Assembly: GCA_017477255.1 (NCBI GenBank)
Contig: JAFUXB010000002.1
Span: 182,474 to 246,473 of the forward strand
DNA: 64,000 nucleotides
Direction: 5' to 3'
Source: Bacilli bacterium
GTDB lineage: Bacteria; Bacillota_I; Bacilli_A; RFN20; CAG-826
Under the pieces are notes generated by a model. It saw nothing but the letters and a program-made list of their open reading frames with translations. It was not told the origin of the DNA and did no database searches. The first letter of the stretch is position 1. Each line of letters starts with the position of its first letter. Made by a program: the position numbers and the translations under genes. This document shows positions 11,861-36,135 of the stretch, in pieces.

Positions 11861-11870
11861 TTATATAATA

Positions 11871-11889
11871 GAGAGAGAGAGAGAGAGAG
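11871..11889. repeat. (GA)9.5 dinucleotide microsatellite
   Basis: gagagagagagagagagag, located about 115 bp upstream of the operon start codon at 11757. Confidence 0.9.
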
Positions 11890-12095
11890 TCAAGCACTTT
11901 CGAAAAAGAGTGCTAATTTCTTCGATTACTTCTACTATTTATTTTTTCTATAAAAAAAGATTATTAGAACTTTAAATTGTTTAATAATCTTTAAGCTAAT
12001 AAATGATTACTACTTATTGTTTTTGTTAATAATCTGAGAAATCTAAAGTGCACTTTATTTTACTCGGATTTTAAACATTTATAATACCCAATTGT

Positions 12096-20430: not shown

Positions 20431-20460
20431 AAAATGCTTCGGAAAAATCCGAAGTATGTT
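20431..20460 (-). terminator. rho-independent terminator downstream of giant gene 2
   Basis: aaaaatGCTTCGGaaaaatCCGAAGTatgttt: 6 to 7-bp stem with an A-run on the plus strand, which is a T-run on the minus strand. Confidence 0.6.
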
Positions 20461-20553: not shown

Positions 20554-23500
20554 TTATCTTGCTTGACCGGTTTTAAATAAATTAGCAACGTATTTCATTA
20601 CATTAATAATATGTTCTTTAGTAGTAATTCCTTTTTGAACTACTATATTGCAATATTTACCATTAATCTTTTCAAAGAAGTCTAAAGACATATAATCTTT
20701 CCATTCTTCATATGAATAAAGACCATATTTATTAATATCTTCTTCCATTAATTTTTCATCATATTTATATGAATTATCCATTTCAAAATAGTTACATGTT
20801 ATATCAACACATGTTTCAGTAATTGATAACACGTTATCAGTAACGCAGTTAACGTTATAATCAGTTAATATTGAATATGCATGACAATATTCTTCACTTA
20901 CTTCAATGTCTACAATTTTCTTAATTCTAATAGATCCATTATTTTCACAAACTACTTCTCTATTTATGAAACTGTTATAGCTATTTCTATTGATAGATTC
21001 GTATTTTTTAGTGTCATTCATTAATACACCATGAGCATTAATTATTTCAAAATTAGAACCATCATCAAATATAACATTAATCTTTGTATTATAGTCATTA
21101 CCATGATCAATTAATGCTAATATATTACTGTATTCAAACTTACCTTCGAAATGATTAAATGTTAAAACTTTATCTTCTTTAATTAAATCTTTAGCTTTCT
21201 TTAAACCATTTAATGTATTAATTAATGTGTCTTCTGAGAAACAACCTCCACTGTTTTTTGATGCATTTGCCACAGTAATGGTAGCATTTCCTGTACCAGA
21301 TACTGTATATGGGCTTGCATTGCCAGTCAAATTCGTGACTGCGATATTTCCTGCTGTATAGTCACTTTCTGCACTTACTTTAATTGTTATTACATCATTA
21401 ACATTAATCGACTGACTAACATTTTCTGTGCTTGATGCTGCAATCGTTGTATCATTAACGATTATAGTATTACCACGCTTAATACTATATGTAGCTGTTT
21501 CGTTACTACCAACATTAATTGTTAAATTATAAGAGATTGGCGTTTGTTCTCCAACAACAGTAATCGACTGGCCCCGAGAAGTTGATAAACAAACACCTGT
21601 TTGACCAGTTTTTAAAGTATGTCCATCTAAAGCTCCGCCAGTTACTTGCCATACCATTTCATAACCAGTAGGTAATGTAATTCCATAATTTGCTGCATCT
21701 GGAACAGTAAAGATTGCATCTTTATTTAAATATCTAATAGTTTGTACTAAATTATTGCCTGCAATCCCGATTGTTATTTCGTTTTTGTTAAGCCAATTTG
21801 CATACAGCTCACAAGAACCTGTAATTTGTGAATTGCTAGTATATTTATTATTAAACGAAGAATCTAAATACCAACCATCAAAATATTTTCCATATGATGT
21901 ATTGCTATTTTTGCCACTTAAATCAGGAACAACTAATTTATCAACATTAACACTTAGAATATCTTCTGAAGAGATGCAAGTGCATCCTTCATCTGTATTA
22001 TCATTTACATAAGTTATCGTGAAGGTCTCAGTATCAGCAGGATACCATCTGCCATATAAATTCAAATTATATGGTGAAGATAAATATGCAAAAATATTAG
22101 AATTTATCTGAGTAATTTTTGTTTGATATAATGAATCAATATACCAACCATCAAAAATTAATGAATTATGTTTTGCAGGATATAAATTTAAATTTGATTC
22201 AACATTAAACTGTGTAGGATTTCTTGAATCATTGCTTTGTCCACTTATTTGATTACCTTCAAAATCGACGTTAAAATTATACGAAATTGAGTAATTGATT
22301 GGTGACCATTTTGCATATAAAACTACACTACTATAAACTACATTAGAAAGCGCACTAATTGTACAATTTTCATCTAAAAACCATCCATCAAAATTGTAAT
22401 GTTCTCGTACAGGAGTATTCGCAATGTCATCGTTATTTATTGTGTATCCTCCATTTCCTATTGTTATAGTTTTTGGGCTAAAAGTCGTCGATGAACCATT
22501 GCAATCATACGATATAGTTCCAGCATTAGAAAACCGTCCATAATTGCTCTCTGTATCTACATATGAAAAATATGTGCCTGGTCCAACATTCTCAAAAACA
22601 TCACTGATTAATCCATTTTTTAACAATTTTAATTTTAATGATCCGTTTATAGTTGTATATGTTACACTTGTAAAAATAGTGCTGCCACTGTGGTTTAAAT
22701 GTTCATAAGATGTTATAGAAGTATTTGTAGCTGTTGTTTGAGCCCCTTCATTTGTTGAAATTACCAAGCCTGCTAATTTTTGAGCTGACAAAACTCCATT
22801 ATTAATCAAAATAGGTTCACTAGCTGTGTTAGGATACGCAGTGTGTGAATCAGTACTTAGATCTTTATAATTTTCATAACTTATTAAATCATCTACATTT
22901 AAAGTCGCAGTTTCGTCAATAAACACTCTACAACCTTTCATTAATTTTAATTTGTTTGAACATGTTATTGTTCCATTAAAAAAATATAGATGGAATGAAT
23001 AAGAAAGTGAAAATCTAAACGATGATGTATCTAAAGAAGTTCCTGCGACATTTAAAGTCAAAGCGTTAATTTTACAGTTTCCTCTTACCCTTATATCCAT
23101 AAAATTTAAATATCTATTACTATAATTTGAAGAATTATTATTTGCATAATTATATTTAAAATCAATAATTGCACCACTAGACATTTGAAATAGATGTGAA
23201 GATGAATTTCCTATAATTTTTATATCCTTTGCACTATGTGAATCACTACTAGCATAAAGCCAGGTATCAACAGTCAACGATGCACCATATTGAATATTAA
23301 CTAGAGGCCTCACATTACAAATCTCATACTCATTAAAAAATATTACATTTTTAGATGACTTATCACTGTTTAATCCATATGTAACTGAACCGCCTCGAAA
23401 ATCGTGAATGATAAAAGGAGCATTTAAAATAGAACCGGATTCAAGTATAATTTTTGGCCAAGTAGTTCTATCTGCCACTTCATCATAATCACCCTGATGT

Positions 23501-24099
23501 TTTGCATATTCTGTAATGTAGCCATAAACAGTTAATTTCGATCCGTTCTTGCAAAGTACTTGGGAATTATCTTTTAATGTTAATTGTGCATAATTACCAT
23601 TAGTAGCACCCCCATACAATCCTGCTCCAGCACCTGCTCCAATAGAACCACCTACAATCATTGTCCCATAATTAGTTATTTTGACCCCATCATCAAGTGT
23701 AACTTTTAATTTCATATAGGTGGCATCATCTTGTTCTTTAAAAACGTTACTAGATGTAGGAGAATTTATATATGTTTCATTTTCATAAGGCAAAATTAAA
23801 CTAACACCACTATTAATAGTAAAACTATTTTTAACAATTGGATTACTTCCAGGAATGACATAAACCGTTTTATTTCCAACATTGTTTGCTGAATTTATAG
23901 CGGCTTCTAGAGATGAAAAATAAGTAGAATCATAATAAGCAACCGGATTTGATTCTTGTGCGCTTACCTTATTACTACTTACTTCATTAATTTTTCTTAT
24001 TTCATCTGAAACCCATGAAGCGCTACCAGTTTTAATTGTAGAAAAAATACACCCAAAAAAAATTAAAAAACCAATAAATATGTTCTTAAATTTTTTCAT
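20554..24099 (-). CDS. giant secreted multidomain protein 2 (paralog of 7763..11140; Gly-rich/beta-helix region, three Flg_new repeats, C-terminal Hint/BIL domain)
   Basis: 1181 aa. N-terminus MKKFKNIFIGFLIFFGCIFSTIKTGSASWVSDE. The N-terminal block PVAYYDSTYFSSLEAAINSANNVG is homologous to giant 1. Flg_new repeats YNFDGWFLDENC...LYAKW, LIFDGWYIDS...LYGRWY and KYFDGWYLDSS...LYANW. Hint block A GGCFSEDTLINTLNGLKKAKDLIKEDKVLTF. ATGA overlap with 24096..24761. Confidence 0.85.
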   Translation of the reverse strand: MKKFKNIFIGFLIFFGCIFSTIKTGSASWVSDEIRKINEVSSNKVSAQESNPVAYYDSTYFSSLEAAINSANNVGNKTVYVIPGSNPIVKNSFTINSGVSLILPYENETYINSPTSSNVFKEQDDATYMKLKVTLDDGVKITNYGTMIVGGSIGAGAGAGLYGGATNGNYAQLTLKDNSQVLCKNGSKLTVYGYITEYAKHQGDYDEVADRTTWPKIILESGSILNAPFIIHDFRGGSVTYGLNSDKSSKNVIFFNEYEICNVRPLVNIQYGASLTVDTWLYASSDSHSAKDIKIIGNSSSHLFQMSSGAIIDFKYNYANNNSSNYSNRYLNFMDIRVRGNCKINALTLNVAGTSLDTSSFRFSLSYSFHLYFFNGTITCSNKLKLMKGCRVFIDETATLNVDDLISYENYKDLSTDSHTAYPNTASEPILINNGVLSAQKLAGLVISTNEGAQTTATNTSITSYEHLNHSGSTIFTSVTYTTINGSLKLKLLKNGLISDVFENVGPGTYFSYVDTESNYGRFSNAGTISYDCNGSSTTFSPKTITIGNGGYTINNDDIANTPVREHYNFDGWFLDENCTISALSNVVYSSVVLYAKWSPINYSISYNFNVDFEGNQISGQSNDSRNPTQFNVESNLNLYPAKHNSLIFDGWYIDSLYQTKITQINSNIFAYLSSPYNLNLYGRWYPADTETFTITYVNDNTDEGCTCISSEDILSVNVDKLVVPDLSGKNSNTSYGKYFDGWYLDSSFNNKYTSNSQITGSCELYANWLNKNEITIGIAGNNLVQTIRYLNKDAIFTVPDAANYGITLPTGYEMVWQVTGGALDGHTLKTGQTGVCLSTSRGQSITVVGEQTPISYNLTINVGSNETATYSIKRGNTIIVNDTTIAASSTENVSQSINVNDVITIKVSAESDYTAGNIAVTNLTGNASPYTVSGTGNATITVANASKNSGGCFSEDTLINTLNGLKKAKDLIKEDKVLTFNHFEGKFEYSNILALIDHGNDYNTKINVIFDDGSNFEIINAHGVLMNDTKKYESINRNSYNSFINREVVCENNGSIRIKKIVDIEVSEEYCHAYSILTDYNVNCVTDNVLSITETCVDITCNYFEMDNSYKYDEKLMEEDINKYGLYSYEEWKDYMSLDFFEKINGKYCNIVVQKGITTKEHIINVMKYVANLFKTGQAR

Positions 24100-24761
24100 A
24101 TAACAGATTCCGCTCCTAAAGTTACTTTAAATCCGACTCCGTTTGAAACATATTTATATGTATTATAAAATGTCGAAAAATTTACAGGTGAAAGAGCAGC
24201 TAAAATAGAAAAATTAACATTTTCATCAGTCAAATCAGAAACACTTGTGTTATATGAAATTATTATTTCAGATCCATTTTCAACAGTTATACCATCATTT
24301 ATTTGTGTCAAATTATGTAATGCGCTGATATTCGTTTTGTTTGCATTAACAGTAACAATATTATTTAGATTCAAAGTATTATTGCCATCAAATCCATTGA
24401 TTTTCAAAATAATCCTCATTTCATTTGATAATAATAAAGATTTGATTCCTCTTTTGGCTAAATTTAAATTAATTGATGAATTTACGGTTATATACCCACC
24501 ATAAGGGTCAATTATCGAACCTTCTTGAGAATACGTTCCATCACTCATTTCAAAGCCATATTGAGACATCTTAAAAGTTTGTAATGTTACTGATCCAAAT
24601 GCATCAATATTATCTGCAGTTTCGACATTACCAACTGATAAGTTTACTGAAATATTAGTACTTACTTGCTTAGCAACAGCCCATGTTGAAAAACCTAACC
24701 CGATTAAGCTAACCATTGAAACGGGAAGCAAAATAGCCAATAACTTCTTATTTATCTTCAT
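24096..24761 (-). CDS. TasA/camelysin-like secreted protein 2 with SipW-cognate-type signal peptide
   Basis: 221 aa. N-terminus MKINKKLLAILLPVSMVSLIGLGFSTWAVAKQVSTNISVNLSVGNV is a paralog of 11140..11757. RBS GGTAAGAG. Confidence 0.6.
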   Translation of the reverse strand: MKINKKLLAILLPVSMVSLIGLGFSTWAVAKQVSTNISVNLSVGNVETADNIDAFGSVTLQTFKMSQYGFEMSDGTYSQEGSIIDPYGGYITVNSSINLNLAKRGIKSLLLSNEMRIILKINGFDGNNTLNLNNIVTVNANKTNISALHNLTQINDGITVENGSEIIISYNTSVSDLTDENVNFSILAALSPVNFSTFYNTYKYVSNGVGFKVTLGAESVI

Positions 24762-24890
24762 TTACTCTTACCTAGTTTTAAGTAAGAGAATATTATAAAC
24801 TCATTTACTATACGAAAATGTATAATAAAAAACTCTCTAAACTCAAAACTCTACATATATATTAATATATATGTAATAATTAAGCAAACA

Positions 24891-24916
24891 AAAAAGTTAG
24901 CTATAGGAGCTAACTT
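24891..24916 (-). terminator. rho-independent terminator of 24958..26055
   Basis: aaaaAAGTTAGCtataggaGCTAACTT: 8-bp stem with an A-run on the plus strand. Same palindrome family as 26084-26111. Confidence 0.65.
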
Positions 24917-24957
24917 TCTACTAAAATATCAAATTTGCACACCTTCTTATTAAAAAT

Positions 24958-26055: not shown

Positions 26056-26083
26056 TATTATTTCCTCTTTACATATATTTTAA

Positions 26084-26111
26084 CAAAAAAGTTAGCTTTA
26101 GGGGCTAACTT
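26084..26111 (-). terminator. rho-independent terminator of 26169..26852
   Basis: aaaaaAGTTAGCtttagggGCTAACTTtc. Confidence 0.6.
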
Positions 26112-26168
26112 TCTTAAAAACAAGAATTAAAATCCTAATACACTTTTTATAAATTTTAGCTAAATATT

Positions 26169-26852
26169 TTAAATAATAATATCACCGTCAATACAATGTA
26201 CTGTTTTTATATTGGATTCATTTAAAAAGTTTGGATTATTTTGTAATAAATTATTAAATTCTTTTTTAGTGCCTTTATATTCTAAATCACACAATAATTC
26301 ACATTTTTTAAAAATAGAATTTCCGATTATTTCTACAGAATTTGATAAAACAACCGATTTCAAATTATTACAATTTTTAAAAGCTAATTTATCAATACTG
26401 TTTATTTTGTCGCTTATTATTATTTTTTCATAATTAGTTCCCGAATAAATTTCACTTGGGATTTCTGTTATATCAGAATCAGAAAAATCCAACACATTAT
26501 TAACTACTTTTTCAATCTTCTTTGCCATAGCTTGATCTTCGACAATCTTTTTTTCTTCATCTTTATCATCAGATTCAACCATATATTGAAGTAAAACATT
26601 GGTATTATCAAAATAATTAGCTATAGTTTTGAACAATATTCCAGTAATTAATGTGGAAATAGCAACAGGCAAGAAATAAGCAAGTGAGACTATCCCAACA
26701 AAAGCAATTAAAACAAAAGCCAGGATAAAAGAAATAACAGAAATAAATAGCACAATGATTGCATAAATATTAACTGTTGCTGCTTTTTTAATGTTTTGAT
26801 TTAAAATTTCATTTTTTTCTTTTTTGTTCATAATTAATTCACCCTCTCCCAA
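26169..26852 (-). CDS. membrane protein, unknown function
   Basis: 227 aa. Two N-terminal TM helices. 4-nt overlap region with the upstream gene 26834..27973. Confidence 0.7.
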   Translation of the reverse strand: MGEGELIMNKKEKNEILNQNIKKAATVNIYAIIVLFISVISFILAFVLIAFVGIVSLAYFLPVAISTLITGILFKTIANYFDNTNVLLQYMVESDDKDEEKKIVEDQAMAKKIEKVVNNVLDFSDSDITEIPSEIYSGTNYEKIIISDKINSIDKLAFKNCNNLKSVVLSNSVEIIGNSIFKKCELLCDLEYKGTKKEFNNLLQNNPNFLNESNIKTVHCIDGDIII

Positions 26853-27973
26853 TTAGCAAAAACTTCAATATCTTTATAAATTGGAGTTAAATTGTCAAGT
26901 TTACCAATATTTGGATTTACTTCTTCTTTTGTATACCATCCTAAAAATTCATAAGTAGTTTCATCAAATTTAGGATAATCTAATTCATAACCCATTGAAT
27001 AAAAATTCCATCCTTCATAAATTTCATATTCTTTAGTTAATAATGTATTATCATCTTCAAAATAAATATTAGACAATTCTTCATTAATTGATGATAAATT
27101 TAAATTTAATGTAACTTTAAATGAATTTTCAGGAGTAGGAACTTTACTTAAATCACTGATTAATTCCCAACTATTTGATCCAGTTTTTTCATAAATTTTA
27201 AAATTAACTGAATCAAAATAAAAATCACCTACATAACCTAAACTAGATTCAGGGGAGCTTTCTCCACTATACCAAATTGATGTTCTATTATATCTTTGTT
27301 CAATTGTATCTCCACTAGTTAAAGTAAAAATAAGTACGTTTTCGCCAGTATTTTCATCAATCTCTACTAAAACACTAGTAATTGTATTCATTTTTAATAG
27401 TGGAATAGATATAAATAAATTTTCTTTATTAGTATCTAAATATAAATTTAATATGTTTTGACTTTCTTCTTCAATAACTTCAACTGCTTTAATATAAGCA
27501 CCAACATTACCTTTAGGAAGAGCGATTTTATAATCTTCTTTGTTATTAAAAGAAATAATCATATATTTTTGATCACTAATTTCTTCATAAGTAATTCCTG
27601 TAATTAAAGTTCCATCTTTTCCTTGTTTGCCGTTAATTAAAGGTAAAGTTAATTCAATAAATTCAGTTTCTTCTTCGTTAAGATAAGCATTAATAATAAC
27701 TAAATTATTAGTAGAATCAACAATTGGAGAAGAAAAATGATCAATTCCTAGTCCTTTATTTAAACTAAAAGTATAAGTAACTTCTTCTTCACCATTAAGT
27801 GTAACTTTAATAGTTTTAGTTAAAGTTTCTTCATCTATTTCTTCACTAGTACTAGTAATAACATATTTATATTCACCTAAAAATCCACATGAAGAAAAAG
27901 TAATACTACCTAAAAGTAAAAAAGTTGATAAAAATAACTTAGATTTAAACACTTTTTTCATCATTTTACCCAT
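26834..27973 (-). CDS. lipoprotein with C-terminal Listeria-Bacteroides (Flg_new) repeat
   Basis: 379 aa. Lipobox FSSCG. C-terminus YEFLGWYTKEEVNPNIGKLDNLTPIYKDIEVFANWE. Paralog of 27961..29103. Confidence 0.8.
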   Translation of the reverse strand: MGKMMKKVFKSKLFLSTFLLLGSITFSSCGFLGEYKYVITSTSEEIDEETLTKTIKVTLNGEEEVTYTFSLNKGLGIDHFSSPIVDSTNNLVIINAYLNEEETEFIELTLPLINGKQGKDGTLITGITYEEISDQKYMIISFNNKEDYKIALPKGNVGAYIKAVEVIEEESQNILNLYLDTNKENLFISIPLLKMNTITSVLVEIDENTGENVLIFTLTSGDTIEQRYNRTSIWYSGESSPESSLGYVGDFYFDSVNFKIYEKTGSNSWELISDLSKVPTPENSFKVTLNLNLSSINEELSNIYFEDDNTLLTKEYEIYEGWNFYSMGYELDYPKFDETTYEFLGWYTKEEVNPNIGKLDNLTPIYKDIEVFANWERVN

Positions 27974-29103
27974 CTAGCCCATAAATTAGTATCACTATTA
28001 ACTACTGTTAAATCAGTAAATGATCCTAAATTTACATTATATTTTCTTGAAGTATACCATCCAGCAAACGAATATCCATTAGTACATGTAGGAAGAGGTA
28101 ATTCATAACCTTCACTATAAAAATTATATCCAGCTTTAATTTCATATGAACTTTCTTCACCATAGTTAAAACTTGCTGTAGCATCACTAGGTTCATTTAA
28201 ATTAAACGATACTGTATAAGTTTTATTAACTGCTGGGGTTGATCCTAAGTTTGCTACTACTTTCCATTTAGTGCCTGTAGCACTTACTTTTTGATAAATA
28301 ATAAATTTATTAGTATTAAAATAAAAATCTCCAATATTTCCAAAATCTGTGATATTTTCACTATTTGGATCATAAGTTCCTGTAAACCATTTAGTTACTG
28401 TTCCTATATCCATTGGTTCACTAGATTCGCCATTATTATAATAAATTACCATTTGATAAGAATTAGATATATCATCAAAAATAACTTCGACATAATCTAT
28501 TGATTTAGCTGCAGGAATTTGAATTGTTCCTAAAGGATGTTCTTTATTAATATCTCTATAAAAAGTAACTACTGTTACGCCATTTGGTAAAGTTTCATAA
28601 TCAATTGCAACTACTCCATCTCCGTCCTCTCCTTTTTGTAAAGGGAAAGAAATTGATGGAGTTTCATCATCAAATTCGATAATAATAATTGGATTACCTT
28701 CTTCATCAACTCCTTCAGTTAATGATTTAATTCCTTTACCATTTTTCCCATCTTCACCTTTAATTAAAGGCATTAAAATAGTTTTTTTAGTTTGATGATC
28801 ATCGTTATAAGTAATAATGAGTTCTACTTCATTAGTAGCTTCATTAAATTTACCTACTTCAATATTTTTAATTCCAGTTCCATCAGATAAAGTAAAAGTA
28901 TATGTAGGAAGAGTTGAGTTAGCACCAAATTCAATTGTTATTTTTTGTCCAATTACATTATTATTTTCATCTTTTATATCTTCATGAACAAAACTAGAAA
29001 TTGTATATTCATCACTTCCAAAAAATGAACATGATGAAGCAAAACTTCCTAAAAGTAAAACACTAGATAAAGCTAAAACTTTACTAAATTTAAACTTTCT
29101 CAT
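27961..29103 (-). CDS. lipoprotein with C-terminal Flg_new repeat (paralog)
   Basis: 380 aa. Lipobox FASSCS. C-terminus YSFAGWYTSRKYNVNLGSFTDLTVVNSDTNLWARW. Confidence 0.8.
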   Translation of the reverse strand: MRKFKFSKVLALSSVLLLGSFASSCSFFGSDEYTISSFVHEDIKDENNNVIGQKITIEFGANSTLPTYTFTLSDGTGIKNIEVGKFNEATNEVELIITYNDDHQTKKTILMPLIKGEDGKNGKGIKSLTEGVDEEGNPIIIIEFDDETPSISFPLQKGEDGDGVVAIDYETLPNGVTVVTFYRDINKEHPLGTIQIPAAKSIDYVEVIFDDISNSYQMVIYYNNGESSEPMDIGTVTKWFTGTYDPNSENITDFGNIGDFYFNTNKFIIYQKVSATGTKWKVVANLGSTPAVNKTYTVSFNLNEPSDATASFNYGEESSYEIKAGYNFYSEGYELPLPTCTNGYSFAGWYTSRKYNVNLGSFTDLTVVNSDTNLWARWVK

Positions 29104-29105
29104 AA

Positions 29106-31535
29106 CTAACTCCTTCCTCTAACAATTAAATCTTCTCTTGATGGTGATTCTTTATATAAATATGGTTTATCAGTATATGTACCATTTGTAATAAAATTAA
29201 ATGCATTAAATCCTGCTGCGACTGATACACATTTTTGTAATATATCAATATATCTATTTCCTGAATTGCCATTCATTGAGTTTTCCATAATATTTACATG
29301 TAAATCTTCGCCAAAATCGATATTATTTAATGATGAACTATCTACAGTAGATAAATTAATTCCTCCACCATAATAAGCAACTTCACTATTTAAATATGAT
29401 TTTCCTTCTTCTTTGTAGATATATTTTTTATCTGCTGCTAAGCTAGAAACTAACTTTTTCATTGGGAAATAATAATCAATTGGGATTCGATCCATTTCAA
29501 AATCATCTCCAAGTACTGATTTAGCAAATTCTCCAATTCTTTCTTCAATAAGACATGAAGCATCTAAATCTTCAATATCTTTAAAATCATAAAATTTAGT
29601 ATCACCAACTAAATTTAATTTTGATGGTCTCATTGTTGCGCCTACGTTGTTAGGGAGTGCAAAATCTAGACCAAATCTATTAAATGTAGCTTTGATGTAA
29701 CTTGGCATACCATTATATAAGAAACATCCATTAAAATAAGTATCAAAAGCTATAGCAAATATTCCAGATTGATTAAAATAAGTGTCTTTTACTGTAATTT
29801 CTTGACCAAAATCTACTTCATCTCCTTTTAAATAAGGATTATCAAGTTGAGATTGGAAAGTATTAAGCATACTAATAGTTTCTTCGCTATCTCCTTGACC
29901 TTGAATAAATTCATTAAATATTAAAGAATCAGCACTAATTCCTTCTTTTTTATCTAAGAAATCTCCAAGTCTTCCATCAAAAGTTTCACCATCAAAACTA
30001 TAATTTACATATTGTCTTAAATCAGTTTCTTTATATTCGTTACATCCAATTTTAAGTAAAAATTCTCTACTATTTTGAAGTAATGAATTTTCAAGTAAGA
30101 AATTATCACTACTATAAACTCTCACTGCGTTTCTTGTGTTTTTAACTGTAACATTTTTTAAAGTTACATCTTTTGCATTAACATCAATTCCTGTTCCAAC
30201 AAATTCTAAATTATAAATATTATTAGCGTAGTTATCACAGTTAATTACATTTAAATCATTAACCGTTACTCCTTCTTTATCAATATAAATTAAAGAATTA
30301 TCTTGTCCAAAAGCTTTAACAATTGGAGCTTCAAAATCTCCAATTGATACAAATGTTAAAGGTCCTGTAAATAAATCACCCTTTGTACTATCAGGAGTTA
30401 ATATTCCAGTATATTGATTAATTGAACCATTTATTGGGTAAGTTAAATTTCTACCATTAACAGTAAATCCATTTCCATAAAAATCTTTTTGGATATGAAT
30501 TCCACTGATTACTTCGTTTTTATTTGTATTTTCACCATAAATTTGTTTAATAAATTTATCGTTATATGTAGTTTTAAAACGATATACTTCATTATTAAAA
30601 CTAAATGAATTTTTATTTAAATTACCAAAAAGTCTTGTTGATTTATTCTTTAATTCATCAGTTCTATTTCCGTTATTATAAACATAAGTGTTTTCTAAAG
30701 ATTCAAGATTTACTTGTAAAACACCTATTTCTCCACTTCCTCTATTTTTATTAGTAATAGCAAGTAAGTCATTATATGAATAAACATTACATCCATCTTT
30801 AACTATATTTAAATCAAGATCTTTTTTAAGTTCAATTTCATTAGTTAATTGTGCACTAAATGAAATTTTAGCTTCACCACTATTTTTAATAGTTAAAGCA
30901 CTATTTTTTTCATCATAATTTAATGTAGTTGATGTAATATTCTTCACTTTTAAAGGTAGTCCTTCTGGTAAAGTTTTAACTTTTAAATTGATATTTGCAT
31001 TATTTTTCCTGTAACTACTAGGATCGGTATAAACTAAATCATATTGACCAAAATATCTTTTTCCTGTAATTGATTCACTACTTGAAGGATATTCGAAGTT
31101 GATAATAATTGTTCCTTCATTATAAATTTCGGCATTAAATGTAGCGCTGGCTGTTCCTTTTTTATTTCTACATCCAACAGTTACAGTTCCTTCATTTTTA
31201 GCAAATAAATACCATTTTTCTTCTTCTTTTTCGACTACTTCAGCAATGTTTGTGTCTCCATTAATAAACCAAATAAGTTCATTATCACTAGCTAGTTCTC
31301 TACTTCTATCATAAGTTAAATTACATCTAAGTTCAGTATAAGGATTATCATTCATTTCATTTAACATTTGAAATCCTGTATATTCATCAAAAATACCATC
31401 AAAATCTATTTTTTGAATATCATTAGGTAATTCTCTTATTCTTTGTTTAATAAGGGCAAAACTTAAAAGACTCACAATAAATGGAGCAATAAGTAAGATA
31501 TAAAGTGTTTTTTTAGATCCGGATTTTGCCATCAT
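29106..31535 (-). CDS. membrane-anchored surface protein with Big_2 domain and right-handed parallel beta-helix repeats
   Basis: 809 aa. N-terminal TM helix. Big_2 block IWFINGDTNIAEVVEKEEEKWYLFAKNEGTVTVGCRN. Beta-helix repeats NVTVKNTRNAVRVYSSDNFLLENSLLQNSREF. Confidence 0.8.
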   Translation of the reverse strand: MMAKSGSKKTLYILLIAPFIVSLLSFALIKQRIRELPNDIQKIDFDGIFDEYTGFQMLNEMNDNPYTELRCNLTYDRSRELASDNELIWFINGDTNIAEVVEKEEEKWYLFAKNEGTVTVGCRNKKGTASATFNAEIYNEGTIIINFEYPSSSESITGKRYFGQYDLVYTDPSSYRKNNANINLKVKTLPEGLPLKVKNITSTTLNYDEKNSALTIKNSGEAKISFSAQLTNEIELKKDLDLNIVKDGCNVYSYNDLLAITNKNRGSGEIGVLQVNLESLENTYVYNNGNRTDELKNKSTRLFGNLNKNSFSFNNEVYRFKTTYNDKFIKQIYGENTNKNEVISGIHIQKDFYGNGFTVNGRNLTYPINGSINQYTGILTPDSTKGDLFTGPLTFVSIGDFEAPIVKAFGQDNSLIYIDKEGVTVNDLNVINCDNYANNIYNLEFVGTGIDVNAKDVTLKNVTVKNTRNAVRVYSSDNFLLENSLLQNSREFLLKIGCNEYKETDLRQYVNYSFDGETFDGRLGDFLDKKEGISADSLIFNEFIQGQGDSEETISMLNTFQSQLDNPYLKGDEVDFGQEITVKDTYFNQSGIFAIAFDTYFNGCFLYNGMPSYIKATFNRFGLDFALPNNVGATMRPSKLNLVGDTKFYDFKDIEDLDASCLIEERIGEFAKSVLGDDFEMDRIPIDYYFPMKKLVSSLAADKKYIYKEEGKSYLNSEVAYYGGGINLSTVDSSSLNNIDFGEDLHVNIMENSMNGNSGNRYIDILQKCVSVAAGFNAFNFITNGTYTDKPYLYKESPSREDLIVRGRS

Positions 31536-33154
31536 TAAATCCTCATTTTGATAAAGCTATTATTAATTATCTTTTTAAAAGGTAAAATAAGAGCAACGTT
31601 TGTAATTACATAAAGTAAAATTACAATAATATACATTAAGGCTTTTGAAACTTGAGCATACATAAATAAGAATATAAGTCCAAAAGTAATAAGAGGTAAA
31701 ACAATTGATAAAACTGTCGATAAAAACTCAATATTTGATTTTTTATTTTCATTTAATTTAGCGAGATCTATATATACTCCTGCTACACTAAGTGATAAAA
31801 GAAGCATTAATCCAGCTAGTAACGAAATAAAGAAAGCAAGTACTGAAATTTGTTTTCCTATAGCAAGTACTAAAAGAGTTAAAATTAAACTAAATGAAGA
31901 AAAAGCAAATGGAATAATCATTTTACAAATAGTTTGTTTTAATGGGCTAATTGGAATATATTTAACTATTTGAATTGCTTTTTGTTCTCTAGAATAAGCA
32001 TCCATTGTAGAACTTGCAATAATTGAAGAAAATAAAAGAATTAAAGTAATATTAAGTGCATTTATAAATTCACCATAATAATGTAAAAACATTTGTTGGT
32101 TTGTATAAAATAAAGTATTAAGTGAATTAATAACAACAAATGCTAAAAATGGTTGCATTATAAGTAAAGAAGTATAACTAAATACATAATTTGAATTTCT
32201 AAAAATAAGTACAAATTCTTTTTTTAAGAGGGTTTTAGTAGGGTTTTGAAGTAAAATCTTACTAGATTTCATAGTTTTAGATTCATTAGAACTAAATTCA
32301 CCTTTTAAGAAATTAGTATATGATTCAGTTGCTATAAAATATCCTAAAACGAGCGCTATAACACTACTTCCTACACTAATCATTATGTCTTGTAAAACAT
32401 TTACTTTTCCTAGTCCTAAATCCATAAGTTGATAAGTAGGAACAAAGAATTTAGTAGCTTTATGAAGCTTTTCTACAAATGCTCCACTAATTAAAGTGTC
32501 AAGTTTAGCATCATTTACAAGTGTCATAAATAAATTAAGTACGTAGTTATATAAAATACACAAAGTAATAACTAAAATACTTCCTAAAGCAATTTGTAAA
32601 ATTGGTTTAGGTTTAATAAAATTGTAAGCTTTATTATATAAAGGCAAGATAATAAGCGTTAAACCAGTTGATATAAAACTAGAAAAGAATGGGTATAACA
32701 CACTAAAAACATAAAATTTAGTAGTAATTCCTGATTCAAATCCTTGTTTAATTCCAAATGTAAAAAGTAATGGAATAGTAATAATTGCACTAGTTAAAAC
32801 GTTATTTAAATAAGTAAATAAAGCTTTTGAAAATATAATTTCATCATTATTAATTGGAAGATGTAACATAATTGATGAATCAATTCGTTTATAAAAGATT
32901 TCTCGAGCTCTTAAAGTCGTAGAAATCATAGAAACAATTAACATGACAAATAATATTAAAATTAAGAAATCATAAGATCCAAACGAAGAAAATTCTTTTA
33001 ATTTTGGTTCAAGTTTAGAAAAAATAAATACTTCTAAAAAAACTATAAGTCCATAGACTAAAACTCGACCAACCCATCTTAAAATGGTTTTGACTTTACT
33101 TGATTCATAAGTCTGAGACTCTTTAAATTCTTTATGAAGTAATTCAAGTAACAT
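31535..33154 (-). CDS. polytopic ABC-type permease (partner of the REC-ABC ATPase)
   Basis: 539 aa with at least 10 hydrophobic helices. Start overlaps the stop of 33154..34317, and the stop overlaps the start of 29106..31535. Confidence 0.7.
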   Translation of the reverse strand: MLLELLHKEFKESQTYESSKVKTILRWVGRVLVYGLIVFLEVFIFSKLEPKLKEFSSFGSYDFLILILFVMLIVSMISTTLRAREIFYKRIDSSIMLHLPINNDEIIFSKALFTYLNNVLTSAIITIPLLFTFGIKQGFESGITTKFYVFSVLYPFFSSFISTGLTLIILPLYNKAYNFIKPKPILQIALGSILVITLCILYNYVLNLFMTLVNDAKLDTLISGAFVEKLHKATKFFVPTYQLMDLGLGKVNVLQDIMISVGSSVIALVLGYFIATESYTNFLKGEFSSNESKTMKSSKILLQNPTKTLLKKEFVLIFRNSNYVFSYTSLLIMQPFLAFVVINSLNTLFYTNQQMFLHYYGEFINALNITLILLFSSIIASSTMDAYSREQKAIQIVKYIPISPLKQTICKMIIPFAFSSFSLILTLLVLAIGKQISVLAFFISLLAGLMLLLSLSVAGVYIDLAKLNENKKSNIEFLSTVLSIVLPLITFGLIFLFMYAQVSKALMYIIVILLYVITNVALILPFKKIINNSFIKMRI

Positions 33155-34317
33155 TAAAGATTTTCTACTCCTTCTCCATAAACTTTAAAGAAAACACGTT
33201 TAAGGTCTTTTCTTTTATAAGGTTCTTTTTTAAAATCAAGTTCAACTGCTATTTTTCCTTCATTAACAATTGCAACTTTATCACAAATTGCACTAACTAG
33301 TTCAATATTGTGACTTGTAATAAATATTGTATTTCCAGCTTTTGCATAGTCTCTAAGCATTCTAAGTAAAACTTCATAAACCATGATATCTAGACCTACC
33401 GTAGGTTCATCTAAAACCCATAATTTAGGATTATGAATTAAAGAAGCCATTAAGCATACTTTTTGCTTCATACCATGTGAATATTCACTTATTTTTCTAT
33501 TTAAATCAGCTTCTGGTAAATCAAATTTACGTTTTAAGAAGTCATAGTTAGCATCAAATGAGCTTTGAATCATTCCATAACTACTTCCAATAAATTCTAA
33601 AAATTCTTTACCAGTCATAAGTTCATATGCTGTTGGTTCACTTGGGACATATCCAAATAATTTTTTAGTAGCAACTGGATCATCTTTAATTGATTGTCCA
33701 AATATTTTAATATCTCCGCTATTAAAATCTTTTAGTCCTACGATAGCATCAATTGTAGTTGATTTACCGACACCGTTTTTTCCAACAAAGCCATATATCT
33801 CACCTTTTTTAACATATAAAGAGATACCTTTAAGAACTTCTTTTTTACCATAAGATTTATAAACATCATCGATTTCAAGAGCGATTTCATCGAGCTTTTT
33901 AGTAATATGATTTGCTCTATAATGTTCAATAATTCTCATGATTCTAGCTAAAATTACTTCGCTAGATTCAAAAGGTTTTTTAATAAAATCCATTGCGCCA
34001 AGTTTTAAACACTCGACTTCTTTTTCTTTATCACTAGTTAAAACAATTACAGGGATTTCACTAATTTCTGGATTTTCTTTTTTAAACTTTAAAAAAGCAA
34101 TTCCATCCATTTTTGGCATGATTAAATCAAGTAAAACAAGGTCAATATCTTCAGCTTCTTTTTTTAAGATAGCAAGGCCTTCATCGCCATCTTTTGCAAA
34201 AAGACATTCACACTCATCTTTAATGATGTTAGCTAAAATCTCGCGATTGATTTCTTCATCATCAATTATGAGTACTTTACTAGCTTTTTCCTTTAATAAA
34301 CTTGAATCATTAGCCAT
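33154..34317 (-). CDS. response-regulator receiver (REC) domain fused to an ABC transporter ATP-binding domain
   Basis: 387 aa. REC residues KVLIIDDEEI, DLVLLDLIMPKMDG, VIVLTSDKE and KLGAMDFIKKPF. ABC Walker A GKNGVGKST, degenerate signature YSHGMKQKV, Walker B LWVLDEPTVGLD and H-loop FITSHNIE. Confidence 0.8.
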   Translation of the reverse strand: MANDSSLLKEKASKVLIIDDEEINREILANIIKDECECLFAKDGDEGLAILKKEAEDIDLVLLDLIMPKMDGIAFLKFKKENPEISEIPVIVLTSDKEKEVECLKLGAMDFIKKPFESSEVILARIMRIIEHYRANHITKKLDEIALEIDDVYKSYGKKEVLKGISLYVKKGEIYGFVGKNGVGKSTTIDAIVGLKDFNSGDIKIFGQSIKDDPVATKKLFGYVPSEPTAYELMTGKEFLEFIGSSYGMIQSSFDANYDFLKRKFDLPEADLNRKISEYSHGMKQKVCLMASLIHNPKLWVLDEPTVGLDIMVYEVLLRMLRDYAKAGNTIFITSHNIELVSAICDKVAIVNEGKIAVELDFKKEPYKRKDLKRVFFKVYGEGVENL

Positions 34318-34335
34318 ATTTTCTCCTAAAAATAA

Positions 34336-34749
34336 CTATGCTGTAGTTGTTGATCTAGTAACACTAGCCACTACACCAAATGAAATTAGAGTACCATAAA
34401 CAACATAAAAAATTACGACAGCAATAAATAAAACTGTTCCCGCAAGTCCTAAAAAATAGCCAATTTTGCCATATATATGCTTATCTTTAGTCTTTTTACC
34501 TATACTCATAGCTAATATATTAAAAACTATTCCGATAACACCGAAATCTAAAGCTAAACCAATAACACCTAAAACTAAACTGACTAATGCATTTTGTTGC
34601 TCTTCTTTACTTATAGCTTTAGTTTCATTGTTTATAGCTTCAATTTCTTTTTTACCGAGCACATGTTCGAACTTTTTGCTACCACAATCAGGACAAACTC
34701 TAATGTCTTCATCTTTGGTTTCATATCCACAATAACTACATTTTTTCAT
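34336..34749 (-). CDS. small membrane protein with N-terminal zinc ribbon
   Basis: 137 aa. CSYCGYETKDEDIRVCPDCGS followed by three TM helices. Confidence 0.65.
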   Translation of the reverse strand: MKKCSYCGYETKDEDIRVCPDCGSKKFEHVLGKKEIEAINNETKAISKEEQQNALVSLVLGVIGLALDFGVIGIVFNILAMSIGKKTKDKHIYGKIGYFLGLAGTVLFIAVVIFYVVYGTLISFGVVASVTRSTTTA

Positions 34750-34751
34750 AA

Positions 34752-36134
34752 TTATTTATCCTTTTTCGTTTCATCCCATAATTTTTTAATCCAAATATAC
34801 TTCTTCTTTCCGATTTTGATTTCATTAAATGAACCATTACAATCAAGACAAGTATATAAAGATGATTCACTATGCAATAAGTGAGTTTCCCCACAGAATG
34901 GACATTTATTAATTTCGTCGATATAAACTGGAATTAATATTCTAGTTGATTTAAAAATATTAAAAATTTCTAAATCACTATAAATTTCTTTTTCATAATT
35001 TAATTCACAAACATTATTAAAGTTTGGAGTTAAATTATTATTTGTAACGTAAATACATTCATCATATTCGTTTTCATTAAACTCTTTTTTATCTTCTAAA
35101 GCATAGACAAATCTAATTAAAATACGATGAGATACGTTATTTAATTTAATATTTAATGTAAGTGATTTATCATCTTCATTAATTTTTAAAGAGTATGCAA
35201 ATTTATCTAATTTAAACTTAATTAAAACTCTACTTGTTACTAAATCTTTTTCATTTAAGCTTAGATCTACAAGGTTTTCGAGTTTAAATTCATCATTTTC
35301 ACTTATAACATGAAGTAATCTAATAACTGCGTAATTGAAGAATAATTTATCAAAATCTAGTTCTTCTTTTACTCCAAATAAGTTTTCTTTATAAAACCTA
35401 TAAACTTTGTTATATCTTCTATCATGAAGTATAGTGTTAGTCATATTAATTGGAAGATGAAAAGATGTATCTTCTAATTCTTTATAAAATTTATGGAGTT
35501 TTAATCTTTTTGCTTTTTTATGGATTTCTTTTAATGCATTAAAATTTACATTAGTTAATCCTTCATTAAAAACATATTTAGATATTGCTTCATTTTCATT
35601 AAATAAATTCTCATAAATTGATAATCTAGATAAACTAGCTTCGTTAGTTTCATAATATGTTTTTAATGAATTAGATGGAGTTAAACTTAAATCTTTATAA
35701 GTTTTAAGCATCGTTAATATTTTTTTAAAAACATAAATAATGAATCTATTTTCATAATTATTAATTGTATCGATATATTCGACACTATAAACTTGTTCTG
35801 GAGTCATTTTTCCATTTTTATCCTTCCATAAAGCAGGATCTTTCATAGTTTTTGTAAATGATTCTTCAGTTAATATTGAAACAAGTTCACTACGAGTAAT
35901 AATTTCTTCAGTAGTAGTTTGAATATAAGGATAATTCATAATATTAATTAAAATATCTAAAATATTATTTAATTCAGTTATGAATTTTTCTAGTTCTACA
36001 TTATCTTCACTAGCAAGAGGTAATTTTTTAGTACCTTTAAAAATATTAGTTGTAGACAAAGTTAAATCTAAAGATTCATTAAATCTAGAAACTAATTCAT
36101 TATTAAAATTAACTAAAAAACTATGATTTGCCAT
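34752..36134 (-). CDS. uncharacterised protein with C-terminal zinc ribbon; candidate partner (McrC-position) of the McrB-like ATPase
   Basis: 460 aa. C-terminus CPFCGETHLLHSESSLYTCLDCNGS. Sits directly downstream of the McrB-like gene, 2 nt apart. I could not identify a clear PD-(D/E)xK motif. Confidence 0.6.
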   Translation of the reverse strand: MANHSFLVNFNNELVSRFNESLDLTLSTTNIFKGTKKLPLASEDNVELEKFITELNNILDILINIMNYPYIQTTTEEIITRSELVSILTEESFTKTMKDPALWKDKNGKMTPEQVYSVEYIDTINNYENRFIIYVFKKILTMLKTYKDLSLTPSNSLKTYYETNEASLSRLSIYENLFNENEAISKYVFNEGLTNVNFNALKEIHKKAKRLKLHKFYKELEDTSFHLPINMTNTILHDRRYNKVYRFYKENLFGVKEELDFDKLFFNYAVIRLLHVISENDEFKLENLVDLSLNEKDLVTSRVLIKFKLDKFAYSLKINEDDKSLTLNIKLNNVSHRILIRFVYALEDKKEFNENEYDECIYVTNNNLTPNFNNVCELNYEKEIYSDLEIFNIFKSTRILIPVYIDEINKCPFCGETHLLHSESSLYTCLDCNGSFNEIKIGKKKYIWIKKLWDETKKDK

Positions 36135-36135
36135 A

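Follow-up and report, generated by a model that had tools for sequence, protein, structure and literature searches.

The genes small2 and giant2 form a two-gene unit with coupled translation and stand last in a conserved cluster of about 20 kb that runs on the minus strand from about position 40910 down to 20554 of the window (the whole 64,000-nucleotide stretch analysed) and recurs in uncultured gut Bacillota. On balance we think it probable, if only just, that the two products would be a coupled pair of secreted cargo proteins whose leaders are removed by a SipW-type peptidase, and that giant2 would then cleave itself in the manner of Hedgehog proteins, leaving a passenger at the cell surface. 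This passenger would most likely act with the small partner, as a surface adhesin or as a matrix protein.

A coupled gene pair at the end of a conserved cluster

The cluster comprises, in order, the genes for a SipW/SEC11-like peptidase, a membrane AAA ATPase, an ABC transporter, an 809-aa protein and Flg_new lipoproteins, and then the small and the giant gene (Table 1). Both reading frames of the pair, and the ATGA through which they overlap, had been proposed in a sequence-only reading of this DNA and were found again in the sequence. The same reading held that the coupling is maintained; in about 12 homologous loci the junction is equally tight (gap of -8 to +33 nt). Small and giant genes are obligately paired. 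All known members of the giant family come from MAGs or metagenomes.

Table 1. Features of the cluster, of the small2-giant2 pair and of the paralogous pair, by position in the window
Feature	Position	Strand	Remarks
Two small proteins, 279 aa and 277 aa	39235..40910	-	Same leader (GFANW / GFATW); directly upstream of peptidase gene
SipW/SEC11-like (ER-type) signal peptidase homolog, 406 aa	37978..39198	-	TIGR02228, SipW model, SEC11C comparison
Conserved cluster body	26834..37950	-	Comparison of homologous loci
Membrane AAA_5 ATPase	36136-37950	-	Cluster body
460-aa partner	34752-36134	-	Cluster body
Response-regulator/ABC ATPase	33154-34317	-	Cluster body
12-TM permease	31535-33154	-	Cluster body
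809-aa protein	29106-31535	-	Cluster body
Two Flg_new-type lipoproteins	27961-29103, 26834-27973	-	Cluster body
Terminator-like hairpin	24891..24919	-	3' of upstream 365-aa gene; 5' limit of small2-giant2 unit; consensus scan only
small2	24096..24761	-	221 aa; ORF re-called; NCBI MBR1581704.1 'hypothetical protein'
small2 leader, aa 1-27	24681-24761	-	Ends GFSTW
ATGA overlap, small2 stop/giant2 start codons	24096..24099	-	Translational coupling
giant2	20554..24099	-	1181 aa, predicted modular secreted protein; NCBI MBR1581703.1 'InlB B-repeat-containing protein'
giant2 leader, aa 1-29	24013..24099	-	Basic, hydrophobic, then GSASW
giant2 N-domain, about aa 50-527	22519..23952	-	Family-defining; holds PVAY..SLEAAINSAN block and Gly-rich motif
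Gly-rich motif GGSIGAGAGAGLYGGATNGNYAQL, giant2 aa 150-173	23581-23652	-	Within N-domain
Three Flg_new (Listeria-Bacteroides / InlB B-type) repeats, giant2 aa 528-769	21793..22518	-	Pfam, NCBIfam, motif
Rest of giant2 middle, aa 770-944	21268..21792	-	No family match
Predicted autocleavage junction Gly952/Cys953 (SGG/CF)	21241..21246	-	Cys in 157/158 family members
giant2 Hint domain, aa 953-1094	20818..21243	-	Cys953, His983 (FNH motif), His1023 (block B)
Conserved helical tail, giant2 aa 1095-1181	20557..20817	-	FEYD..KYDE..M..DI.KYGL..YE.....Y..V..GKG
Terminator-like hairpin	20437..20454	-	100 nt past giant2 stop codon; consensus scan only
Promoter-like site of operon 1, TTGACT-17 nt-TATTAT	11865..11893	-	Consensus match only
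Paralogous pair small1 + giant1	11140-11757 + 7763-11140	-	TAATG junction

Leaders and a candidate leader peptidase

The same leader, basic, then hydrophobic and closed by the motif G-x-[S/A]-x-[W/F/Y], was found on small2, giant2 and four related proteins of the window; in giant2 it is the sole hydrophobic segment. We propose that small2 and giant2 would be exported by the Sec route and would then lose their leaders to the 406-aa peptidase homolog. SipW removes the leaders of TasA and TapA. That a peptidase is reserved for this task would be accounted for by the aromatic residue at the cleavage site. The 406-aa protein matched TIGR02228 over the whole model (E=5e-9; 36.2 bits, below the cut-off of 51.85), the SipW model (E=2e-6) and human SEC11C (E=2.4e-6), and the His of its VHR motif aligned to the catalytic His of SEC11C. 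The Ser of its GSDSMSE motif fits the catalytic Ser only if an insertion of about 15 aa is accepted. The gene also heads the cluster in a second locus, L004, and its product is presumed to be the leader peptidase of the cluster. The cleavage site is read from the motif, and the leader could instead stay on the protein as a membrane anchor.

The earlier description of small2 as TasA-like holds for the SipW-type leader and the linkage to a SipW-like peptidase, but not for the sequence of the protein, and even the likeness of GFSTWA in the small2 leader to GGGTWA/AF in TasA is at the level of a motif only. The leader of small2 is followed by a beta-rich body without a match in Pfam, NCBIfam or PDB; no TasA/camelysin (Peptidase_M73) match was found for small2 in Pfam or NCBIfam at E<=0.1, and a PDB profile search with seven small proteins found no TasA. 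Small2 might still be a true fibre subunit of the TasA/camelysin type, assembled by donor-strand exchange, with giant2 as a TapA-like nucleator or tip. The leader with its aromatic residue, the SipW-like gene in the cluster and the obligate pairing of small and giant would all fit, as would the approximately 25 conserved residues that follow the leader in all the small proteins (...Q.......N..VG.V), in the position of a donor strand, and a small body that is predicted, with low confidence, to be beta-rich. However, in addition to the negative searches, the AF2 model of small2 (from a 12-sequence alignment) had a pLDDT of 38.7 and was unusable, and the mature N-termini of the giants are unlike those of the small proteins, so that we regard a TasA-type fibre as decidedly unlikely. 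The secreted products of the tapA-sipW-tasA operon of B. subtilis are likewise a small protein and a larger partner, but homology of small2 to TasA and of giant2 to TapA is undetectable, the 406-aa peptidase here carries an insertion and a long tail, and the cluster adds the ABC transporter, the membrane AAA ATPase and other genes.

A Hint domain and a constant helical tail end giant2

The C-terminal unit of giant2 (229 aa) consists of a Hint domain and a helical tail of about 85 aa. A Hint domain was detected in both giant2 and giant1, the large protein of the paralogous pair. The block A nucleophile is Cys953 in giant2 and Cys899 in giant1; among the 158 family members it is conserved in 157, and a small residue (S, G, N, T or A) precedes it. 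The block B His (His1023 in giant2) is present in 152 of the 158. Giant1 has Gln at the block B position and also lacks the FNH His, and since neither conserved His is there, not every family member may cleave. The C-terminal (His-)Asn that splicing requires, with a Cys/Ser/Thr as +1 extein residue behind it, was not found, the Hint domain of giant2 ending in ...VLSITE and that of the family in LS(M/I)PGG, and the module is terminal in family proteins, not inserted into a host protein; on these two grounds an intein was rejected. That Cys953 and His1023 are present, together with the absence of the C-terminal Asn, leads us to predict Hedgehog-type N-terminal self-cleavage and not splicing. The Hint domain would catalyse only the N-S acyl shift, like HhC, and break the Gly952/Cys953 bond, and a passenger of about 100 kDa would be parted from the 26-kDa Hint and tail, either hydrolytically or because its C-terminus is passed on to a different nucleophile.

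The tail may be an accessory of this cleavage, either as a region that recognises an adduct or a partner or as a holding or assembly domain. The same tail of about 85 aa stands behind the Hint domain in all 150 of the matches listed; at E<1e-30 the number of matching representatives is 1925. Hint and tail were modelled as a single compact unit (pTM 0.87), and a structure search with the tail gave no match, solved toxins included. Hint and tail are also carried by phage proteins that lack a leader and adjoin portal genes, and the module is exchanged within the family as an autonomous cassette.

Bacterial inteins, BIL domains and polymorphic toxins are known cases of self-processing by Hint domains. 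Of the bacterial arrangements seen in this analysis, none resembles the Hedgehog 'Hint plus recognition region' more closely than Hint and tail of the giant family. A conserved extension always stands behind the Hint domain and is modelled with it as one unit, and it may correspond to the extension of Hog proteins (Hint with SRR/ARR). In contrast to Hedgehog and Hog, the tail resembles SRR in neither sequence nor structure, the block B Thr is missing, a family-specific FNHETG motif is present, and the host is bacterial or a phage. Among bacterial intein-like (BIL) domains, such as C. thermocellum BIL (2lwy) and Tetrahymena BIL2 (6tmm/6y75), BIL2 and the A-type keep the C-terminal Asn (the crystallised mutant is C1A-N143A), whereas the present family lacks it, ends in LS(M/I)PGG and always carries the 85-aa tail.

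A distinct Hint subtype with a constant helical tail closes large secreted proteins, hundreds to thousands of them, and some phage proteins, in a large, uncharacterised family whose hosts are uncultured gut Bacillota. Should the thioester be guided to an acceptor by the tail, bacteria would have a new route for attaching surface proteins or polymerising them, and the finding would touch on the debate over a bacterial origin of Hedgehog processing. One form that this could take is an undescribed surface assembly system encoded by the cluster, in which Hint and tail would pass the C-terminal residue of the giant passenger to a defined acceptor: a lipid, a glycan of the surface or, in an isopeptide of the BIL2 type, a lysine on the small protein. 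The tail would serve as adduct-recognition region and the ER-type peptidase would prepare both partners, which would amount to covalent anchoring or polymerisation of the Hog type, independent of sortase; we hold this to be improbable. The phage proteins, being leaderless, indicate that a cell-surface acceptor is not required, which weakens the readings that involve anchoring and is also compatible with the tail as a payload.

With such a payload, giant2 would be a polymorphic toxin, the Hint domain a releasing peptidase and the tail a toxin directed at competitors or, in phages, at the host. The succession of signal, repeats, HINT and C-terminal domain fits the template of polymorphic toxins, in which a secreted multi-repeat stalk is followed by HINT near the C-terminus, directly before the toxin (PMC3482391). 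The phage proteins, next to the portal gene, also have the position of MuF-type toxin carriers. However, the C-terminal domain of the giants is constant and not polymorphic, it was modelled as one compact unit with Hint, and it matches no solved toxin. Nor was a conserved immunity-like gene found 3' of the giants across the loci compared: giant2 is followed by a terminator and then a lipoprotein gene, and the giants of other loci by a flavodoxin gene, LGT, a convergent gene or nothing. Two marks of polymorphic toxin systems, a variable C-terminal domain and a downstream immunity gene, are thus absent from these loci, and we consider a toxic tail very unlikely.

It is also unlikely, in our view, that Hint and tail are a C-terminal intramolecular chaperone or assembly domain for a beta-rich passenger, to be cut off afterwards and discarded. 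Such is the fate of the Peptidase_S74 domains on phage tail spikes and fibres, which aid assembly before they are cut off and discarded. Several features agree with such a role, namely that the module closes long proteins and phage virion-associated proteins at their very C-terminus, that it is swapped as a cassette, and that it occurs with and without leaders, which implies no dependence on a cell-surface acceptor. Against it, the module has no similarity to Peptidase_S74, oligomerisation of the passenger is not indicated by any result, and the strong conservation of surface motifs of the tail (DI..YGL, GKG) would be left unexplained. Even on a conservative reading, the analysis provides a name, and with Gly952/Cys953 a predicted cleavage site open to test, for a large block of proteins annotated as 'hypothetical' or 'InlB B-repeat' in gut and rumen MAGs.

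Domains of giant2 and its relation to the second pair

The N-domain of giant2 (about 480 aa) had no match in Pfam or PDB. The Gly-rich block had been assigned to a replaced middle region, which is wrong: GGSIGAGAGAGLYGGATNGNYAQL sits inside the conserved N-domain, where it aligns with ISGYLYSGTNQNSS... of giant1 and fits the family motif IGG..G.......G.T.G.Y..I.L. The three Flg_new repeats were correctly seen in the middle. Two stretches are above threshold (PF09479 / TIGR02543; E=4.5e-18 and 65.6 bits against a cut-off of 27 in Pfam, 50.3 against 20.95 in NCBIfam) and the third is recognisable by the motif F-D-G-W-[FY]...Y-A-x-W, which places the ends of the repeats near aa 599, 690 and 769. 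These repeats, shared with Flg_new / InlB B-repeat surface proteins, are the whole basis of the NCBI name, but they make up about 20% of giant2, LPXTG, GW and LRR modules are absent, and the name misses the N-domain and the Hint and tail that define the protein.

Small2 and small1 are 46% identical over aa 2-79 only (E=2e-20), in agreement with the proposal that they are paralogs with a common MK..KLL..PVS..SL.GLGFSTWAVA start. Between the giants, aa 1-446 of giant2 aligned to aa 1-495 of giant1 (23% identity, E=5e-20) and the C-terminal residues 945-1173 to 891-1119 (31%, E=1e-22), and no similarity was found between these two regions; the middle of giant1 has Big_2 and no Flg_new. The ends are similar and the middles dissimilar, as the sequence-only reading had it, although what it took for a shared N-terminal block is a domain of about 450-500 aa.

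Selection for receptor specificity or antigenic variation had been invoked, under which paralogous pairs would have had their middles replaced or diversified. One genome does hold two pairs with homologous ends and unrelated middles, the middles of the family are occupied by adhesin-type domains, modules are exchanged, and a promoter repeat of variable length, suggestive of surface variation, lies in operon 1 (small1 and giant1) but not in operon 2. However, the parts shared by the giants are only 23-31% identical, the operons have no nucleotide similarity beyond 95 nt of the leader, and each giant is closer to relatives in other genomes than to the other giant, giant2 to P0002, P0036 and P0161 and giant1 to P0029 and L018 (35-37% identity over about 1100 aa). 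Giant2 is collinear with P0161 (35% over 1151 aa), and its middle is the best-conserved part (48%), with the Flg_new repeats and aa 770-944 conserved together. A hypervariable middle in paralogs that are now diversifying does not agree with collinear relatives that keep the middle, and near-identical strain copies differ at 0-1 positions in 3.7-4 kb, so that there is no sign of ongoing diversification. Judged from these alignments, small1 and giant1 are an ancient paralogous pair of another subfamily and not a recent diversifying copy; recent diversification is largely refuted by the comparisons, and selection for variable middles seems to us most improbable. Conserved ends with an exchangeable middle are the general architecture across the large family, of which P0002 and P0005 have no middle at all, and the alignments indicate that middles and Hint-tail units are exchanged within it as whole modules.

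A variable repeat in the candidate promoter of operon 1

The spacer of the promoter-like site of operon 1 is a (CT)10 tract, (AG)10 on the plus strand at 11870-11889, with 10 or 11 copies in different assemblies and hence a spacer of 17 or 19 nt. Repeats of varying length between -35 and -10 underlie phase variation of H. influenzae hifA/hifB (TA repeats), N. meningitidis porA (poly-G) and M. hyorhinis vlp (PMC3899988). In operon 1, unlike in these systems, the unit is CT and the case is read from sequence; it concerns small1 and giant1, not small2 and giant2. The small1-giant1 cassette is probably switched on and off by this repeat.

The two small/giant pairs are ancient, modular paralogs

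The two open reading frames of operon 2, small2 and giant2, were confirmed in position and in length (221 and 1181 aa), and they are coupled, the start codon of giant2 overlapping the stop codon of small2 in an ATGA at 24096-24099. The proposed paralogy of small2 with small1, its counterpart in operon 1 of the same window, is borne out by 46% identity (E=2e-20), but the similarity is limited to residues 2-79. The giants are homologous at both ends, through their N-termini (aa 1-446 of giant2 against 1-495 of giant1; 23% identity, E=5e-20) and their C-termini (945-1173 against 891-1119; 31% identity, E=1e-22). Between these matching ends nothing aligns. All these pairwise values lie far beyond chance. 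Giant2 scores 65.6 bits for Flg_new against a cut-off of 27, and three repeats, recognisable by motif, end at about aa 599, 690 and 769; giant1 carries a Big_2 domain in their place. The Gly-rich block GGSIGAGAGAG... (aa 150-173), which the sequence-only reading had assigned to the replaced middle, lies instead within the N-domain, the family-defining N-terminal region of the giants, where it aligns to giant1 and is equivalent to a family-wide motif. What had been described as a short N-terminal block of similarity is a domain of about 450-500 aa.

Coordinates of the features discussed, with strand and remarks
Feature	Position	Strand	Remark
small2	24096-24761	-	221 aa
giant2	20554-24099	-	1181 aa
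small1	11140-11757		
giant1	7763-11140	-	1125 aa, full ORF
Promoter-like site TTGACT-17 nt-TATTAT upstream of small1	11865-11893	-	best-scoring; consensus match
Terminator-like hairpin flanking small2-giant2	24919-24891	-	consensus scan only
Terminator-like hairpin flanking small2-giant2	20454-20437	-	consensus scan only
Two genes between lipoproteins and small2	24958-26852	-	
AAA_5 ATPase and 460-aa neighbour	34752-37950	-	

Pairwise alignment showed that the mosaic of similar, unrelated and again similar segments is real, but that the divergence behind it is old. The N-domain of giant2 is 29-32% identical to those of the metagenomic proteins P0002, P0036 and P0037 (E ~1e-46 to 1e-48) as against 23% to giant1, and its C-terminal Hint domain with the ~85-aa helical tail (Hint+tail) is 35-38% identical to many outside proteins as against 31% to giant1. 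Moreover, giant2 is collinear with another such protein, P0161 (35% over 1151 aa), the middle being the best conserved part at 48%, and giant1 is collinear, middle included, with homologs from a human-gut MAG (L018) and P0029 at 35-37%. Since the collinear relatives share the middles, each middle is ancient and conserved within its subfamily. The closer outside relatives and the conserved middles contradict the idea that the pairs are recent paralogs undergoing diversification. Thus, of the earlier interpretation, paralogy, coupling and modularity stand, but recency and the role of the middle as the variable part do not. A dN/dS analysis between the giants is meaningless at 23-31% amino-acid identity, because nucleotide similarity does not extend beyond 95 nt of the leader. 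Comparison across strains gave no sign of diversification either: the operon 1 coding DNA has 0-1 differences in 3.7-4.0 kb among four assemblies, and five assemblies show no variation in the 200 nt upstream of small2.

The Hint+tail of giant1 (7763-8470) closely matches that of the metagenomic protein P0021 (L027:3206-3889), with an identity of 80% at the protein level and of 75% at the DNA level over 687 nt. This similarity starts at exactly the codon of Cys1, the first Hint residue, and extends as far as the stop codon. Between the N-domains of giant1 and P0021 identity is only 25%, and for the remaining cluster proteins of the P0021 organism it is 27-54% when they are compared with those of the window. 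As judged from these alignments, genuine cassette exchange occurs in the family, the Hint+tail having been swapped between the giant1 and P0021 lineages. The subtype concerned lacks both conserved His residues.

NCBI names giant2 an 'InlB B-repeat-containing protein' and small2 'hypothetical'; its entry for giant1 is an 'Ig-like domain-containing protein' of 638 aa (MBR1581696.1) that starts at an internal Met. Both homology and other gene calls back the full-length giant1, with leader and N-domain. The source MAG has a G+C content of about 25%. One assembly has a GAG>TAG change at codon 259 of giant2 (L045:2937), and contigs of two samples end inside giant2, at about aa 260-320 (L045, L046, L049 and L050 are concerned). 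Contig ends also fall within the giant1 Hint+tail. These features could reflect strain heterogeneity or repeat-induced assembly breaks.

The operon 2 pair closes a conserved gene cluster

A recurring gene order was found in homologous loci: a signal-peptidase-like gene, a membrane AAA ATPase, a ~450-aa partner, an ABC ATPase, a ~530-aa permease with 12 TM segments, a ~800-aa protein, a Flg_new lipoprotein, the small protein and the giant. The same arrangement is found on the minus strand of the window, between 40910 and 20554. The order being shared, small2 and giant2 occupy the canonical terminal slot of a conserved cluster of about 20 kb. Pair 1 is an extra, 9 kb beyond. A tight junction recurs across organisms: at about 12 loci the giant is directly preceded by a gene for ~200-240 aa, the gap between the two being -8 to +33 nt. 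Additional to the common order are, in the window, two small-like genes with which the cluster starts and two lineage-specific genes that precede small2. The latter encode membrane proteins, one of 227 aa with a C-terminus of LRR_5 type and a coiled-coil one of 365 aa, and they are missing from the homologous clusters of other organisms. A scan of the whole window against Rfam gave zero matches, hence no riboswitch or leader was identified.

The AAA ATPase of the cluster is a membrane-anchored AAA_5 protein of 604 aa that matches the PADLOC 'phage defence candidate' model PDC-M26A (E=3e-35). The neighbouring protein of 460 aa corresponds to a DUF2357-type partner in the homologous locus L004, and the two genes hold a fixed cluster position in four distant loci. 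They may either form a defence system or belong to the cluster machinery. Between the operons lie genes for a 641-aa lipoprotein with three internal repeats of ~170 aa (18428-20353 (-)), an 875-aa GH127-type (beta-L-arabinofuranosidase-like) lipoprotein (15789-18416 (-)) and, beside them, an ArsR/HVO_A0114-type regulator (14814-15764). These are probably a glycan-use unit, unrelated to the small/giant pairs.

A common leader and a SipW-like peptidase

In all the small proteins the N-terminus consists of basic residues followed by a hydrophobic stretch and the motif [V/I/L]GF[S/A][S/T/N][W/F]; the giants have the same layout, with the motif G[H/Y/F/G/L/S][S/A][S/A][W/F/Y]. Within the 64-kb window the pattern occurs in exactly six ORFs, those of small1, giant1, small2, giant2 and two proteins of 279 and 277 aa (39235-40910), and in the first four it is the sole hydrophobic segment. 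A type IV pilin or class III signal was considered for the 'GF(S/T)' element and rejected, as the hydrophobic segment precedes the motif and does not follow it.

Directly downstream of the 279/277-aa genes lies the gene for a 406-aa protein (37978-39198 (-)), which also heads the cluster in L004. It matches TIGR02228, the archaeal/ER-type signal peptidase I, over the whole model (E=5e-9), at 36 bits and thus below the cut-off of 51.85, and Bacillus SipW with E=2e-6. Its top solved relative is human SEC11C (E=2.4e-6), with which the catalytic-His motif VHR aligns; the Ser motif GSDSMSE can be aligned only with an insertion of ~15 residues. The protein, 'hypothetical' at NCBI, is twice the usual length, with an extra N-terminal TM segment, the ~15-aa insertion after the Ser motif and a Lys/Glu-rich C-terminal tail of ~150 aa. 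SipW of B. subtilis, an ER-type Ser-His peptidase, cuts TasA at GGGTWA↓AF, where the aromatic residues make TasA a poor substrate of LepB-type enzymes (PMC10269814). By analogy, the cluster's own 406-aa peptidase would cut the leaders near G-x-[S/A]↓x-[W/F/Y], following export of small2 and giant2 by the Sec pathway.

The label 'TasA-like' holds at the level of leader and peptidase only, where the pair resembles the SipW-TasA system of B. subtilis; small2 itself has no similarity to TasA or camelysin in Pfam, NCBIfam or PDB. The small proteins, that of 279 aa among them (hhalign probability 93%), all share about 25 conserved residues after the leader; the remainder is weakly alignable and predicted to be beta-rich. 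A word-indexed homolog search with small2 returned small2 as the only match, a profile of seven small proteins found nothing beyond close relatives of the inputs, and a PDB profile search with the family found no TasA and no pilin. An AF2 model of small2 from a 12-sequence alignment reached a pLDDT of 38.7 and was unusable for comparison with the TasA fold. That small2 and giant2 form a true TasA/TapA-type fibre is possible, given the leader and the peptidase, and the lack of similarity beyond them speaks against it.

A family of secreted giants ending in a Hint domain and tail

Searches with the N-domain of giant2 returned unnamed metagenomic proteins of 730-890 aa. Two, P0002 and P0005, consist of N-domain, Hint and tail without any middle, and others carry repeats after the N-domain and no Hint. 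When the N-domain was searched against PDB, as a single sequence or within a 41-member profile, nothing matched apart from the Hint domain, and Pfam gave no match for N-domain or tail in the 41 members. The Pfam domains found in their middles are exclusively of the adhesin-stalk type (Flg_new in 12, Big_2 in 3, MBG in 3 and YDG in 1). A relationship of the N-domain with the 809-aa protein of the cluster was rejected (hhalign probability 2%). Small2 and giant2 belong to a large, unannotated family of secreted giants of gut Bacillota that end in a Hedgehog-like Hint domain and tail and are accompanied by a small partner within a conserved cluster. The passenger of giant2 may be an extracellular adhesin or matrix protein that cooperates with the small partner.

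When 1.84 billion cluster representatives were searched with a profile built from the last ~235 residues of four sequences, 4,700 matched at E<=1e-3, 1,925 of them at E<1e-30. Among the 150 matches listed, the whole profile was covered and nearly all the matches end no more than a few residues from the C-terminus, in proteins of 220-3,700 aa; the tail is a constant feature. The N-domain is also present in 107 of 152 listed Hint+tail proteins, often behind extra N-terminal inserts. In 158 family members, Cys1 is kept in 157, the block-B His in 152 and the His of a family-specific F-N-H-E-T-G motif in 150. The residue preceding Cys1 is small (S, G, N, T or A), and the Hint domain ends in L-S-(M/I)-P-G-G, without His-Asn. 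In giant2 the Hint residues are Cys953, His983 and His1023; giant1 retains Cys899, but its two His are replaced by Phe and Gln, which places it in a minority subtype (5/158).

With no terminal Asn and no downstream extein, the Hint domain cannot splice. By analogy with other Hint domains, giant2 is expected to cleave itself, an N-S acyl shift at Gly952↓Cys953 being followed by resolution of the thioester. The junction, SGG↓CF, resembles the Hedgehog cleavage site. Hedgehog HhC resolves its thioester with cholesterol via its SRR, and BIL2 with lysine (PMC2362128; PMC8616854). We rate the giant2 system as a variant of two kinds already known, Hint/BIL autoprocessing and SipW-type secretion. The alternative that Hint+tail is an intramolecular chaperone, discarded after use, fits all the data and departs from the preferred model only in the purpose of the cleavage. 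The system would be of sharply greater significance if the tail does direct a transfer reaction.

Among GTDB species representatives, Hint+tail was found in 18 loci, all from gut or rumen MAGs, which span Bacilli, 'Mollicutes', Ca. Scatosoma, Eubacteriales/Clostridia, Lachnospiraceae and one 'Prevotella' bin. Several carriers have neither N-domain nor leader. One, of 822 aa, lies right behind a phage portal gene (phrog_156, E=6e-30) in L024 (4283-8696)/L025, and ten IMG/VR viral contigs (L029-L038) encode similar leaderless carriers of 725-822 aa. Their N-terminal parts matched nothing in Pfam or PHROGs, and no GenBank phage was matched by Hint+tail in a tblastn search, the phage carriers coming from uncultured IMG/VR contigs only. 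These leaderless carriers in a phage context suggest that Hint+tail is an autonomous unit that may also work in the cytoplasm or in virions, and they argue against an obligate cell-surface acceptor. The phage context also agrees with a role of the Hint+tail giants as toxin carriers, and the overall template is that of polymorphic toxins (PMC3482391), but this explanation fails on two defining features, as the C-terminus is constant and an immunity gene is absent.

Operon 1 has a variable spacer in a promoter-like site

The spacer of the promoter-like site upstream of small1 is a (CT)10 tract (repeat at 11870-11889), the sole dinucleotide array reported by TRF in the 64 kb. The window has ten copies, as do two other assemblies, of which one starts inside the tract and so has at least 10; three further assemblies, one of them a 97%-identical strain, have 11. 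Otherwise the assemblies are identical, both in the flanks of the tract and in the 3.7-4.0 kb of coding DNA. Judging from these sequences, the operon 1 promoter is probably phase-variable through its CT spacer. Phase variation by promoter spacers is known in hifA/hifB, porA and M. hyorhinis vlp (PMC3899988), and the length variation upstream of small1 bears the same signature. The regions preceding the small genes at ten other loci contained no simple repeats. The variable tract of operon 1, together with the invariant upstream region of operon 2, suggests one constant cassette and one that is probably switchable.

A 24-nt motif, AGAGTTTTGAGTTTAGAGAGTTTT, made of GAGTTT units, occurs upstream of small2 (24830-24853 (-)) and in the small1 leader (11784-11807), the copies being in opposite orientation and equal at 23/24 positions. 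The small1-leader copy forms the loop of a hairpin, GCAGGCG...CGCCTGC, just before the small1 start codon, where there is no obvious Shine-Dalgarno sequence. Upstream of the small1 promoter, a 40-nt tandem repeat of 2.5 copies (12100-12198) holds a perfect 14-bp palindrome, TTCAGTATACTGAA (second copy, TTCACTATACTGAA), which looks like a candidate operator for a dimeric regulator.
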